Source of the DNA: a virus
DNA length: 64,000 nucleotides
IMG/VR virus record: IMGVR_UViG_3300044675_001825
Location: 13,457 to 77,456 of that record
Strand: one strand, 5' to 3'
Shown here piece after piece: positions 3,346 to 9,669 of this stretch; positions within the stretch are counted from its first letter, which is position 1, and each line of letters starts with the position of its first letter. The notes beneath the pieces were generated by a model that was given only the letters and a program-made list of their open reading frames with translations, had not been told where the DNA came from and did no database searches. The translations under genes and the position numbers were made by a program.

Positions 3346-4047
3346 TTATTTTTTAAATTGTTCAAACCATTCTTTAAATAAATCTTTACCCCAATATTTA
3401 GTAGCTTTTCCTTGATGTGTATAGTAAAACATTGCAAAATCAATCATATCTTCCTCACTATACATTCTTTCAGCTTGCCATTTAGCACCTTCATATAATC
3501 CTACTTTAACATTATTCAAATCATTTTCATAATTTGTAGGAAATGGTTTTTTTGGATAACCAAAAGTGTATAGATGTTCCCATTTACTTTTAAGTTTATC
3601 CATTGCTATTTTTTCTATTTCAGCAGCTTCTTCTAATAGTTCTTGTTTAGGTTCTAACTCATAAGAATGTTTTTCTAAACCTTGTTGTTCATATTCTTGA
3701 ACTGTTTGTTTAGGTTCTTCTTTTGGAATGATTATTTTGTAAATTGGCTCAACTTCATTTTCTCCTTTAAATTTTTTAAATGGTCTAATATTTACAAACT
3801 CACAACTTGGATTCTTAACAAACCATTCTAAAAATTCATCATCAATAGCTTGTACGCCATCTTTGATAAGGTCTGTATCTGTTGTTAGGATGATTGAAAA
3901 ATAGTCAGTATACACAGGAGTTCTCATTTTCATAAAATCTCTATATTTGTATATTTTACCTTCCCAAAAAACATAACCTCCTTCTTTAATTTCTTCATCA
4001 TTAGTGATAAACAATTCTTTTCCTATGTTATAGATATTTTTTGCCAT
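3346..4047 (-). CDS. Conserved Bacteroidota-phage hypothetical protein
   Basis: Contains IILTTDTDLIKDGVQAIDDEFLEWF, EPKQ repeats and GAKWQAERMYSEED; start moved to MAKNIY at 4047. Confidence 0.75.
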   Translation of the reverse strand: MAKNIYNIGKELFITNDEEIKEGGYVFWEGKIYKYRDFMKMRTPVYTDYFSIILTTDTDLIKDGVQAIDDEFLEWFVKNPSCEFVNIRPFKKFKGENEVEPIYKIIIPKEEPKQTVQEYEQQGLEKHSYELEPKQELLEEAAEIEKIAMDKLKSKWEHLYTFGYPKKPFPTNYENDLNNVKVGLYEGAKWQAERMYSEEDMIDFAMFYYTHQGKATKYWGKDLFKEWFEQFKK

Positions 4048-4622
4048 GATGTGTTGTTTAAAATATGTGTTATACAAGATTCACTTACATTATACTCTTT
4101 TGATAGCTTTTTAGCTGAATACTTATAAGGAATATACTTTTGTTTTATTTCTAAAACTTGTTCTTTTGTTAATAATGACCTACCATTTTCTTCTCCTGAA
4201 TATGCAACTCTATGTAAATGAAGTTTGTTTAATCCATTTTTAGTAGCGTGTATGTGATTTTGTGAGTTAGTACACCATTCAAGATTGTTTGTTTTATTAT
4301 TGGTTTTATTACAATCTATATGGTTTACTTGTGGATAATCATTAATGTTGTCAACAAATACCTCTGCAACTAATCTATGAACATACTTATTTACTTTTAC
4401 ATTATTAACAGTAAAACCAACAGTCATATATCCAAGATTACTTTTAGATTGTTTGCACATCTTACCTTTTCTCCAATAAGGAACTCTATTGTTTGGAGCA
4501 ACTTCTCTATCTAAAGATTTTACATTACCAAGATTAGATACTTGATATAAACCTTCGTATCCAATTACATTTTTCCAAACTTCTGACGTTGGTAATAAAT
4601 GTATGTTTTTATTTGCTTCCAT
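4023..4622 (-). CDS. NUMOD4 + HNH homing endonuclease
   Basis: WKNVIGYEGLYQVSNLGNVKS (NUMOD4); VHRLVAEVF..VNHIDCNKTNNKTNNLEWCTNSQN (HNH); C-terminal HTH-like tail. Confidence 0.92.
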   Translation of the reverse strand: MEANKNIHLLPTSEVWKNVIGYEGLYQVSNLGNVKSLDREVAPNNRVPYWRKGKMCKQSKSNLGYMTVGFTVNNVKVNKYVHRLVAEVFVDNINDYPQVNHIDCNKTNNKTNNLEWCTNSQNHIHATKNGLNKLHLHRVAYSGEENGRSLLTKEQVLEIKQKYIPYKYSAKKLSKEYNVSESCITHILNNTSWQKISIT

Positions 4623-4803
4623 AATCAAAATCTGGTATATAATTAGGGTTAACTATAAGACTAATGCTGTCTATTGATTTAAACACATTGTCTGCTGTAA
4701 ATTTTTTAAGTGCCTCCATAATGTTATCTGCTTCTACAATTTCTTCTAGATCTGTAGCTTCATCATTACGCTCTGTCCAATAACATATTAAATATCTTCT
4801 CAT
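4609..4803 (-). CDS. Hypothetical protein
   Basis: 64-aa ORF in packed operon. Confidence 0.65.
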   Translation of the reverse strand: MRRYLICYWTERNDEATDLEEIVEADNIMEALKKFTADNVFKSIDSISLIVNPNYIPDFDYGSK

Positions 4804-5761: not shown

Positions 5762-6103
5762 TTAAATTCTTTCCATATAGTCTAATGTAATTGGTAATCC
5801 AGTTAGTAAACTTTCATTTATAAAAACTGATTTATTATTTTTAGTTTTATCATGCCAAACTTCAATTACATTTTTATTTACAAAAACACAAGTAAAATCT
5901 TTTACCATTACTCTTTTTCCTAAAACATAATTCATTGTATAACCACGTTTTTTTAACCAGTCTTCAATGGATTTTTCATCAATTTCCTTTACACTTTCTT
6001 TTGAAATTTTGCTTTTTGCTTGAATGTAAAGCATTTCAATGTGTTCATTAAAATTATGCATAACAGTTTGATATAAACATTCTATATATGTTTCTAGTGT
6101 CAT
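5762..6103 (-). CDS. Hypothetical protein
   Basis: 113-aa ORF with A-rich leader. Confidence 0.65.
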   Translation of the reverse strand: MTLETYIECLYQTVMHNFNEHIEMLYIQAKSKISKESVKEIDEKSIEDWLKKRGYTMNYVLGKRVMVKDFTCVFVNKNVIEVWHDKTKNNKSVFINESLLTGLPITLDYMERI

Positions 6104-6345: not shown

Positions 6346-6380
6346 AAAAAATCCCTACACACTTGAGACATGTGTAGGGA
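6346..6380 (-). terminator. Intrinsic terminator downstream of tmRNA
   Basis: TCCCTACACA-N9-TGTGTAGGGA followed by TTTTTT on the minus strand. Confidence 0.75.
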
Positions 6381-6419
6381 AATGGTAAAAGTTATGTACA
6401 ATGCAAAAGACATAACTAG

Positions 6420-6786
6420 TGGAGATGCTGAGACTCGAACTCAGGTCTTTAATACTCAAATAGTTACAATTTTATACAGCTTATATTCCTACACTTATTT
6501 AAAGAGTCTGCAGGAGATACTCTGGGGCCAACAGTTATGTTAGCGAAACCACCATCTTGTTTAATCTAACAAGAAAATCTTTGAATGTTTAGGCTGCTAC
6601 AACAAGATCAATATCCTCAGTTAATAATGAGAACACTTTGTTCATGTTAGCTTCGATTTGTGCGTTGTCTCCTTGAGATACTACACGAGAATTGTTTTTG
6701 CCATTTATTATATTCACCTTAGTTTACAGTTATCTCTCTGGCTGAATTGTAACCCATGCTTATTAAATCAATTCCATGTCATCCCC
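6420..6786 (-). ncRNA. ssrA: tmRNA (367 nt)
   Basis: 5' GGGGATG pairs with 3' CATCTCC-A, giving the G3.U70 Ala identity pair. T-arm CTGAG-TTCGAGT-CTCAG. Helix 2: TTTAATA/TATTAAA, GGTTACAATT/AATTGTAACT, CAGC/GCTG. Tag ORF 6702..6589 ends LVVAA-stop. CCA not fully encoded. Confidence 0.93.
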
Positions 6787-6985: not shown

Positions 6986-8353
6986 TCAATACTTAAGTTC
7001 TTGCTTTCCTGCTTCAACAGAATATGTAAACACTTTGTCATCTTCTGTAACTTCAATCTGTTTACCACCTGTGTTAAGACACAAGTCTTTCAATTGACTA
7101 CTGAATGACATCAATGATACAGCATTCACCTTGTATGGGAATTTATCTGTACCAATATCATCTTGACCATCATTGATAACTAAGATCTCTGGCTTCTCTT
7201 CTGATAGATTTACATCAAGATTACATAATGTACCTCTTGTTATCTCATCAGAGATGTGTGCAACCATATCACCCACCTCTGTCATACCACCATTTGGATT
7301 ATTAGAGAATGTTTGCCAAAACTTAATGACATCTTCTCTATCCTTGATATGTTGGAACTCAAGATCAGCTGTACTGTCAACAAAATAACTGAAGAACACT
7401 TCAGCTTCTCCTTTCATGACATACTTGAATCTGTCGATTAATATAGCATTAACCCATATCTGTTTCTGACGATAATCCATACTACCTGAATAGTCAAGAA
7501 TGATAATAATCTTCTGAATCTGTTCTTTTCTATCAACTGGGACACTAACTGTCAAGTCTTTAGTTAAGAACTTACTTCTGAAGTTTGGATACACCTTCTG
7601 CATTAGATTCATCATATGGATTTGAGAATAGTCTCTCATAATCATAGTAGAATACTCATCAGAATTAGCTACAATCTTCTCACTGATTTCTTTCTCCACT
7701 TTAAACTCACTACCAAATTGACCAACAAGAGATAGATGGTTCATAATCTCCATCTTTCTATCTCTACTAAGATCATTAAGATCTAGTTGCTCATTAATAG
7801 TTGGGTCACTGTAAAGCTTTCTATCAAAGTCTAAGCCTTTCTTCATGTCCAATTCATCATCATCTTCTTCACTACGTTCAGCATGTTCTTTACCACTCTT
7901 CATTTTCAAGAAAATAGATATGGCTTGTTCCAATGGTGTGAATCCAGGAATGTATTGCTCAAATATACTATCGTATAGAGCTTTTCTTGCTTGATGTTCA
8001 CTGTCTTCAGAATCTATAAACTGCTCAGCTACAAAATCACGCTCATCAATCATCTTGAAATAACACACACGTGCTAGTTCTTTGATTGTATCAACAGATG
8101 TTTGCTTTGGAGCATGCACTTTCTTTCTGATCTCTGATGTAGTTGGTGTTAGATATGTAACAGGATCTTTAACAAATAGATCATCGTTATTATCTGTGTC
8201 ACCCCATGAGAAAGAGAATGAACCCCATCCACTCTTGGACCAACCACCACTATATTTACTCTTCCAACCACCTGTACTCTTTGTAGGAGTATAGGTTGGG
8301 GCATAACGACTACCATAGTAATCGTCATACCCATCATCCCATAAGTTTCTCAT
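6986..8353 (-). CDS. VWA (MIDAS) domain protein, partner of the MoxR-type ATPase
   Basis: IIIILDYSGSM (DxSxS), GGMT and VINDG MIDAS residues; aromatic/Gly-rich N-terminus. Confidence 0.85.
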   Translation of the reverse strand: MRNLWDDGYDDYYGSRYAPTYTPTKSTGGWKSKYSGGWSKSGWGSFSFSWGDTDNNDDLFVKDPVTYLTPTTSEIRKKVHAPKQTSVDTIKELARVCYFKMIDERDFVAEQFIDSEDSEHQARKALYDSIFEQYIPGFTPLEQAISIFLKMKSGKEHAERSEEDDDELDMKKGLDFDRKLYSDPTINEQLDLNDLSRDRKMEIMNHLSLVGQFGSEFKVEKEISEKIVANSDEYSTMIMRDYSQIHMMNLMQKVYPNFRSKFLTKDLTVSVPVDRKEQIQKIIIILDYSGSMDYRQKQIWVNAILIDRFKYVMKGEAEVFFSYFVDSTADLEFQHIKDREDVIKFWQTFSNNPNGGMTEVGDMVAHISDEITRGTLCNLDVNLSEEKPEILVINDGQDDIGTDKFPYKVNAVSLMSFSSQLKDLCLNTGGKQIEVTEDDKVFTYSVEAGKQELKY

Positions 8354-9669
8354 TAGATAAATGAAGCAATAGTTAAGTTCTTAGTAAACTTGTCTACAGA
8401 AGATGTAGCTGCTTTTACAAGCTGTGCATGTACATTAGCAACATCATCACCCACTGTCAAGCCTTTGATGTCTTTCAATTGCATGCTAAGACTGTTAAGA
8501 GCTTCTTTGTAAGTCTTCTCATCTTCTCTTGATCCTAATGGAAGAGTGTTCAATGTCTCAATCATATGTGTAATACCTGAAGACAACTCTCTAAACTTCA
8601 TTGTAGCCTCAAACTTCTTAATTGCTTCAGCAATAAGAGATGGTTTCTTAGCAAACTCAGCAATAAATGCTAATGATTCTGGACCACACTGATCATACAC
8701 TTGATATGCTGTAACAGCAACACGAGGACTAATGGTAATACTATTCTTAGCATACTCTTGTAACAAATAAGGAATAACAGGATCAACTTCTCCTTCACCA
8801 AATTTACTCTCCAATAACTTGTTATAGCTGATCTCTGTGTAGTTATCCCAGATAACATTCAATTCAAGAGGAAAACGCTCCATCAATGCCTTCAATGACA
8901 TGTTCTTAGAGAATTCATCACGAGTTCTGTTAGTACAACAGATGATGAACTTGGTGTTGATAGGAAATATCTGTGTACCATTTCTAAATACACCACTAGA
9001 TAGAATATCCTTCAATTGCTCTAGGATAAAATCAGGAGCATCGAATAACTCTTCGAAGATAACATACTCGTGGTTCATAAATGAATTCTCAACAAGATAT
9101 TCAATCTTACCTGTTGTTTCGAATGTAGGAATGTCAAGACCACCAAACAATCTGTCTGTAGTCATACCTGTACCCATGGTTTGTATGAATGGATCAATAC
9201 CTTTTGATTTAAGAAAATCTAATGTAATCTCTGACTTGCCATGTCCCCCAGGTCCGAAAAGTACTACATTTTTACCTGTAGAATATCCTACGTTTAGAAT
9301 GTTAACTGTCTTATCCATGAATACAAACTTGTCTCCCACTGGATTTTTCTTTACTGATTTAGTTTTTGTCTTCATCTTTTCTTTTGTTATTAAGGAATTA
9401 TTGTTTTTTACTTGGTTTAAAATTTCTTTTGTTTCTTCTTCTGATAGCTCTATTGAGTTTAAAATGCATTGATTAGCTCTGAATGTCCAATCATCATGAT
9501 TGAAATCATGTCCTGCTTCAATTTGTTTAATGAATTTGTCAGGAATGTCTTGTCCCATAAAATGATTCATGTCACCCTCTTCATTCCAGAAGTAAGGACA
9601 GTCATAATCTTCATTCCAAAGATCAACATCTTCAAACTCTTCTTGTGTCTTAAATCTATATTTTGTCAT
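8353..9669 (-). CDS. MoxR/RavA-like AAA+ ATPase with extra N-terminal domain
   Basis: Walker A GPGGHGKS, Walker B VIFEE, sensor-1 CCTN, Arg finger ALMERF, ISPR; coupled to the VWA gene. Confidence 0.88.
   Translation of the reverse strand: MTKYRFKTQEEFEDVDLWNEDYDCPYFWNEEGDMNHFMGQDIPDKFIKQIEAGHDFNHDDWTFRANQCILNSIELSEEETKEILNQVKNNNSLITKEKMKTKTKSVKKNPVGDKFVFMDKTVNILNVGYSTGKNVVLFGPGGHGKSEITLDFLKSKGIDPFIQTMGTGMTTDRLFGGLDIPTFETTGKIEYLVENSFMNHEYVIFEELFDAPDFILEQLKDILSSGVFRNGTQIFPINTKFIICCTNRTRDEFSKNMSLKALMERFPLELNVIWDNYTEISYNKLLESKFGEGEVDPVIPYLLQEYAKNSITISPRVAVTAYQVYDQCGPESLAFIAEFAKKPSLIAEAIKKFEATMKFRELSSGITHMIETLNTLPLGSREDEKTYKEALNSLSMQLKDIKGLTVGDDVANVHAQLVKAATSSVDKFTKNLTIASFI

Follow-up and report, generated by a model that had tools for sequence, protein, structure and literature searches.

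A phage-encoded tmRNA with a predicted 37-residue tag in an uncultured crAss-like lake phage

tmRNA genes carried by phages have been described in the mycobacteriophage Bxz1 group, Bacillus phage G and Melnitz-like pelagiphages, with 402 of 18,146 phage genomes counted as carriers (PMC4131195, PMC9004378), and one Cellulophaga phage has already been listed with a tmRNA (PMC8776804). Such phage ssrA genes come without smpB; maintaining a supply of free ribosomes or recycling host proteins has been suggested as their role (PMC4131195, PMC9004378). The tags encoded by tmRNAs are usually treated as short, interchangeable degrons. In Mycoplasma pneumoniae, the SsrA tag is 27 aa long and is read by Lon, the extra length accompanying Lon recognition; the Mollicutes tags are thus a precedent for tag lengthening alongside switched or added protease specificity (PMC8403727). 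The bipartite SsrA tag of E. coli and Caulobacter, which contains an SspB site, illustrates that an additional binding site can precede the C-terminal degron. In E. coli tmRNA, the frame is set by U85/A86, with A86 located four nt before the resume codon and the codon itself 12 nt past PK1, and the pseudoknots are dispensable (PMC2481249).

The tmRNA analyzed here resembles the other phage tmRNAs in being a phage-borne ssrA without smpB, but it differs from them in its conserved long tag with an invariant core, a feature not described in PMC4131195 or PMC9004378. A full-text literature search also found no description of the present long-tag family. According to our main reading, to which we assign a probability of roughly 85%, the sequence encodes a functional one-piece tmRNA of a crAss-like phage of Flavobacteriia-type hosts, with a long tag whose helix we guess to serve in docking.

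The sequence originates from an IMG/VR virus record of 77.5 kb that is estimated to be 67% complete; the 64-kb part of it that was analyzed is referred to below as the window. The record encodes a large terminase of the crAss type (phrog_6681, 4e-80), its closest cultured relatives are Cellulophaga, Flavobacterium and crAss-like gut phages, and the habitat of this phage is represented by lake and freshwater metagenomes. ARAGORN reported a single RNA gene in the window, a tmRNA at 6419-6786 on the (-) strand, which also carries all other window features described below. Rfam model RF00023 matched 6417-6786 (-) with the whole model (1-374) aligned, and its 63.2 bits (E 2.6e-22) exceed the gathering score, which is 47. 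The gene (6419..6786; 368 nt) is further supported by covariation in the alignment of its relatives, and we can confirm that its product is a complete one-piece tmRNA of an uncultured crAss-like lake phage. The 3' end reads UCCAC followed by UA, the CCA end being incompletely encoded, and an intrinsic terminator with an 11-bp stem and a T run (6352..6380) lies 39 nt past it. A scan of the tmRNA strand for sigma-70 promoters, which does not cover Bacteroidota promoters, gave nothing above shuffles. The window contains no tRNA genes; in the close relative L003, a tRNA-Tyr gene (5904-5978) is located 86 nt upstream of the tmRNA.

Both the Ala-tRNA-like domain and helix 2, which had been recognized in the first-pass annotation made from the letters alone, were borne out by RNAalifold analysis of an alignment of 30 family members, the window included. 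The acceptor stem has 7 bp, with its 5' strand GGGGAUG (6780..6786) pairing with 6421-6427; the alanine identity pair G3.U70 is present in 30/30 aligned members and likewise appears in every acceptor variant listed, and compensatory changes occur at pairs 4, 5 and 6 (3/7; alignment columns 1-7 pair with 424-430). The T arm is present, with compensatory changes in 3/5 pairs, and helix 2 is long (~22 pairs, most of them with compensatory changes). As far as can be judged from its sequence, the RNA has every element required for alanine charging, through G3.U70, and for entry into stalled ribosomes. The element at the PK1 position (6713..6744; tmRNA nt 43-74), placed by the Rfam alignment, is a 32-nt word identical in 104 viral contigs. 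These 104 IMG/VR contigs with the exact word define the family set used here, across which the word is invariant even though the tags differ at up to ~65% of residues. RNAalifold additionally proposed a long-range pairing of PK1 with codons K22-S25, which we took to be chance, since it shows no variation and is absent in VVHNIL-type tags.

Further structure is found within and past the tag template. A hairpin at 6660..6686 (nt 101-127, codons R6 to Q15), with 89% of cells paired, contains one pair that changes from U:A to G:C in 10 sequences, making Ser9/Asp12 Ala/Ala, and part of the N-terminal tag module is thus constrained as an RNA hairpin too. As read from the sequence, a small helix-5-like hairpin, GUUG-UAG-CAGC, lies just 5' of the stop (6593..6603; alignment columns 194-196 pair with 203-205). 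Past the open reading frame, a hairpin UCUUGUU/AACAAGA with compensatory changes in 5 pairs is followed by an invariant UGGUGG (6552..6578). A hairpin CUAACA/UGUUGG and a pseudoknot-like element, AGAGU/ACUCU with UCCU/AGGA (6487..6543), were read by eye from the alignment, the pseudoknot-like element being present only in some relatives. The register of hairpin 3 derived from the window did not fit the other aligned sequences (51% paired) and was discarded. In total, 170 nt follow the tag stop, ~64 nt of which are the 3' strand of helix 2 and the tRNA-like domain. The region between the stop and helix 2 spans ~106 nt in the window and ~65 nt in many relatives, the pseudoknot region being much reduced. 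Insertions of 40-150 nt just past the stop or in the pseudoknot region distinguish family members, as in the tmRNAs of L017, L102 and L075 (359, 438 and 470 nt, respectively), and we therefore regard the RNA body of the family as modular.

The tag template (6592..6702; RNA nt 85-195) is predicted to comprise 37 codons, from the resume codon GGC to GCC, and to encode GKNNSRVVSQGDNAQIEANMNKVFSLLTEDIDLVVAA, identical to the translation in the first-pass annotation; it is followed by the stop codon UAA (6589..6591). The resume codon at nt 85 is preceded by AUAAAU, and the Rfam RF00023 alignment puts the consensus resume codon on the same GGC (6702). Directly 5' of it, the frame-setting context UAAAU (6703..6707) provides U at -5 and A at -4. 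At this base composition, chance alone would produce an open frame of 37 codons with a probability of ~0.065 (about 6.5%); the window sequence alone is therefore weak evidence for the long frame, and its acceptance rests on comparative data, which we consider decisive.

Starting from the conserved resume context, U-A-N-N-N followed by G, the frame is open in 104/104 related phage contigs. Frameshifts or stops in the upstream part of the tag, which had been named as possible evidence against the long frame, occur in none of them. Tag length ranges from 26 to 45 codons (mode, 35) among 72 distinct peptides, and the stop is TAA in 83 members and TAG in 21. The other two frames are open in 0/75 unique nucleotide versions. 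The stretch between the first codon and an invariant AUG comes in 7 length classes (24-57 nt) and the stretch between the AUG and the stop in 12 (45-93 nt), each of them a multiple of three. A test blind to frame placed the first UAA[AU][UC] site followed by G[GA] past PK1 in frame with the core of the tag in 79/79 unique sequences. The context has A at -4 in 104/104 members and U at -5 in 102/104, the resume site is spaced 9-13 nt from the PK1 word, and the resume context of both the family and the window agrees with the E. coli U85/A86 rule. A matching context also precedes the GGC, GGA or GAC resume codon in 18/20 sampled Flavobacteriales chromosomal tmRNAs. At the other end, the window tag terminates in LVVAA-UAA; the final residue is A in 72/72 unique tags and the penultimate residue in 67/72. 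Judging from this comparison of sequences, the open frame of 37 codons that runs from GGC (6702) to TAA (6591-6589) is genuine.

The pattern of substitutions argues clearly that the 37 codons of the window tag are under selection as a peptide. Pairwise differences are in excess at third positions (41,632 versus 27,096 and 25,502). Six columns are invariant among the 72 unique tags (Q15, A18, N19, M20, V23 and the last A), and invariant residues are specified by synonymous codons, with all four Ala codons used at A18 and at A37, both Asn codons at N19 and three Val codons at V23; position 26 is Leu or Ile, encoded by seven different codons. The conserved peptide core, codons Q15-L26 (6625..6660), reads Q-x-x-A-N-M-x-x-V-[FHY]-[SN]-[LI] and has a pN/pS of 0.42, compared with 0.59 overall; the N-terminal module is at 0.73 and the variable C-terminal part at 0.80. 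Selection at the level of the peptide is moderate rather than strong; it is clear for the core and weaker elsewhere. The window copy is an ordinary family member with a unique C-terminal part.

Structure prediction yielded a single helix covering residues 10-36, with a pLDDT of 87 in mid-helix, in line with the helix previously suggested for the middle of the tag. The conserved residues Q15, A18, N19, M20 and V23, plus hydrophobic residues at positions 16, 26 and 27, would occupy one face of this helix, and such one-sided placement of invariant residues is the pattern that a binding surface would be predicted to have. The tag layout is that of a host-like N terminus (G-K/N-N), a ~25-residue predicted helix and a hydrophobic xAA C terminus, and comparison with host tags agrees with the earlier view that both ends are host-like, with the extra residues placed between them. 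A search with the tag profile gave no match at E <= 0.01 among proteins of 80-2000 aa, and a Pfam scan with all 72 unique tags gave chance-level matches only. ESM Atlas scores were all < 0.9 and thus provided no lead on the tag. The conserved core may resemble flagellin C termini, a possible likeness that plays no part in the reading given here.

Three readings of the same RNA dispense with the 37-residue tag. ARAGORN reports only the last nine residues in the window, EDIDLVVAA, with a start at nt 169. If translation resumed there, at an internal GAG (6618), the upstream open frame would be untranslated RNA and peptides such as VVSQGDNAQIEANMNK would not be joined to truncated proteins; this GAG is preceded by UAACU, which likewise provides U at -5 and A at -4. 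However, the GAG site is not conserved, and it would lie ~95 nt from PK1, compared with 9-13 nt in the family and 12 nt in E. coli, while the codons upstream of it hold the frame over 7 length classes and encode invariant residues via synonymous codons. ARAGORN finds 62 of the 104 family members and misplaces the tag start in most of these. Among close relatives, its starts jump between nt 85 and nt 170, always in the frame of the long tag, with the full tag reported in 9 cases. We therefore rejected the short call as a software artifact, and resumption at the GAG seems most unlikely. The AUG at M20, invariant in 75/75 unique sequences, might also be an ordinary start, in which case the RNA would double as an mRNA for a free 18-residue peptide, MNKVFSLLTEDIDLVVAA. 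Bacteroidota initiate translation without strong Shine-Dalgarno sites, and such a start would be compatible with this. Yet Q15, A18 and N19, whose codons precede the AUG, are no less invariant and vary synonymously, and the frame is kept back to the resume context, making the free peptide extremely unlikely. Constraint at the RNA level only, on an RNA that is never decoded and acts, for example, as an SmpB decoy inhibiting host trans-translation, would be in keeping with the covarying hairpin inside the tag template and with the strong nucleotide conservation of the PK1 word. The TLD-only RNA of mycobacteriophage DS6A, which has been proposed to be an SmpB decoy against host trans-translation, would be its precedent (PMC4131195). 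What it leaves unexplained are the indels in multiples of three, the four Ala codons at invariant Ala positions, the third-position excess and the xAA end followed by a stop, which is kept in 104/104 members, and we consider an undecoded RNA very unlikely.

Templates for such long tags recur among related phages. A blastn search against cultured phages revealed 76% identity to the F. psychrophilum phage FpV4 group (Fipvunavirus, 29 records) and a short match in Cellulophaga phage phi14:2 (Crassvirales). FpV4 and phi14:2 are cultured and lytic, and both carry tmRNAs of the long-tag family that are unannotated in their GenBank records (KT876724 and KC821624, respectively). At the FpV4 tmRNA locus (L006 2965-3379), ARAGORN finds nothing and Rfam gives 58 bits; the phi14:2 locus (L137 about 2460-2930) is overlaid by three 33-42-aa "hypothetical proteins" (gp012-gp014). 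Since these two phages are also laboratory-tractable, the gain that a phage derives from its own tmRNA is directly testable. When 1.84 billion protein representatives were scanned with HMMER, 79 clusters (P0001-P0079, at 50% identity) were recovered, each consisting of 28-94-aa ORF calls that end with the tag; these are read-throughs of tmRNAs, with no genuine larger protein among them. Some tags in public gene calls reach about 50 residues, e.g., P0027. The family thus amounts to at least 104 viral contigs and to 79 clusters in public protein calls, and it matters for annotation practice, given that ARAGORN misses 42/104 members and that gene callers put spurious small proteins over these RNAs.

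Among 185,579 species genomes, the PK1 word was found in one, on a 4.9-kb phage-like contig of a Flavobacteriales metagenome-assembled genome (MAG). When 401 genomes of the class were searched in six frames with the tag profile, the same MAG contig alone was recovered (0/400 others). In the genomes searched, the long-tag tmRNA is therefore located on phage DNA only, this 4.9-kb phage-like contig apart. Four freshwater RNA libraries contained contigs of relatives' tmRNAs at a depth far above that of flanking genes. These contigs cover the tmRNA body, not the acceptor ends or flanks, and do not reveal where the RNA starts or stops, none is the exact window RNA, and DNA carry-over is possible; they provide a weak hint at expression in relatives.

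Compared with the chromosomal SsrA of Flavobacteriales, the phage tmRNA shows the same overall plan. Each of 41 Flavobacteriales genomes yielded one strong tmRNA match (393-409 nt, 118-181 bits). The chromosomal and the phage RNAs have in common a tRNA-like domain in which G3.U70 is present, helix 2 and an element where PK1 is expected, as well as the resume context [AU]UAAA[UC] followed by GGC and a tag ending in xAA. The first codons are also similar, GGC AAA AAC in the phage versus GGC GAA AAC in the hosts. In contrast, the phage PK1 sequence, in the window as across the family, is unrelated to that of the hosts, the Rfam score is lower (63 versus 118-181 bits), and the length of the RNA is reduced, to 368 nt in the window and to 302-330 nt in many relatives versus 393-409 nt in the hosts, as is its pseudoknot region. 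The tags differ as well. In 20 Flavobacteriales tmRNAs inspected, it has 9-10 residues and is mostly GENNYALAA, so that the GENNYALAA-like form given for Bacteroidota in the first-pass annotation is correct for this order. The phage tag has 37 residues (26-45 in the family), and family tags are three to five times the host length. The description of the window tag as exceptionally long consequently holds against the hosts and against Mycoplasma (27 aa, PMC8403727), but not within its own family, where 35 is the mode.

How the phage tmRNA might work can be proposed from these features. The first-pass annotation had seen no smpB in the window, and none was found across the whole 77-kb record (67% complete) or in three relatives with complete genomes (FpV4, phi14:2 and G043); because no phage smpB was found, the phage tmRNA presumably relies on the SmpB of the host. 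Host AlaRS, EF-Tu and SmpB would load the phage tmRNA onto ribosomes stalled during infection, possibly following anti-phage RNase or tRNase attack, as had been suggested at the outset. Translation would resume at GGC 6702, and the unfinished protein would gain Ala plus 37 residues. Recognition by ClpXP is plausibly retained, since the tag keeps a host-like start and the xAA end, and this end would still permit ClpXP degradation of tagged proteins. The helix would then be a docking site that alters how or where tagged proteins are handled, in keeping with the original proposal that the tag may redirect products to a different adaptor or fate. Candidate partners of the helix would be an adaptor, a phage factor or an additional protease, for which Lon and FtsH are examples.

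Our best guess from the predicted structure is that the helical core is a docking face added to a retained C-terminal xAA degron. We favor a docking function because the invariant residues lie on one side of the helix and because Mycoplasma provides a precedent in its long, Lon-read tag. Unusual length and a hydrophobic stretch in the interior are common to the phage and Mollicutes tags; that of the phage is the longer one, however, and retains the ClpX-type xAA end. Mycoplasmas are also without ClpXP, whereas ClpX is present in 40/41 sampled Flavobacteriales, so that the phage tag does not match the Mollicutes situation in this respect. It differs as well from the SspB-type tag, in which the second determinant is a 7-residue extended motif rather than a ~25-residue predicted helix. 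SspB (PF04386) was detected in 0/41 sampled Flavobacteriales genomes, with E. coli and Caulobacter controls positive, which speaks against SspB-assisted delivery. The long tags with their invariant helical face lead us to argue that the tag peptide itself has a selected function in infection. Because the tag family is phage-only and has an invariant helical core, these phages probably alter the fate of unfinished proteins. We only tentatively suggest, as somewhat less probable than its opposite, that they use trans-translation as a delivery device, with the invariant helix face recruiting a non-ClpXP protease, an adaptor or a phage factor. Were this true, the phage, rather than the tag of the host, would set the fate of the host's truncated proteome, and the tmRNA would carry a functional peptide module beyond a longer degron.

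Two further readings place the origin or the partner of the tmRNA elsewhere. tmRNA genes are common integration sites (PMC11590407), and the gene might accordingly be host DNA, either an attP or integration remnant or a recently acquired passenger without a role for the phage. Against this, the gene is full length and not just a 3' part, the record yielded no integrase, the RNA is unlike the sampled host tmRNAs outside the resume context, as its lower Rfam score reflects, and its conservation, with compensatory changes, extends over more than 100 phage contigs and to cultured phages that are lytic. We regard the chance that it is host DNA as almost negligible. The other reading arises from the genes directly upstream of the tmRNA, which are co-oriented with it (6986-9669) and encode a MoxR-like AAA+ ATPase of 438 aa (PF20030 at 2.9e-13, plus PF07728) and a 455-aa protein. 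Together with the tmRNA, the ATPase and the 455-aa protein, a putative VWA protein, could form a protein quality-control module, in which the VWA/MIDAS site would grip the tag by its acidic patch. These three genes follow one another directly, and their order recurs in 12 of 55 loci with at least 3 kb of upstream sequence, with the proteins being 63-95% identical. Nevertheless, the pair is absent upstream in the remaining 43/55 loci, the 455-aa protein has only a sub-threshold VWA_CoxE match (E 0.087), and the acidic patch shows no conservation among family members. FpV4, phi14:2 and G043 each have a long-tag tmRNA, yet a search of their complete genomes gave no MoxR homologue, and we conclude from its absence there that the MoxR pair is not an obligatory partner of the tmRNA. 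It is common to one sublineage only, and we give the module a slim chance.

With a decoded long tag on a phage-borne tmRNA as the preferred reading, two observations on the surroundings and relatives of the gene may be added. No gene neighbors conserved family-wide were found; in the window, the same leftward gene block contains an ORF (4023-4628) that resembles a NUMOD4 plus HNH homing endonuclease (phrog_59, 6e-50). Flavophages also harbor a second tmRNA lineage, represented by L002 994-1327, L004 1580-1913 and L005 775-1108 (334 nt, Rfam 103 bits), in which the T-arm and 3'-end word is exactly that of the window and the tag, GNYNTYNVAYA, has an ordinary length of 11 residues.
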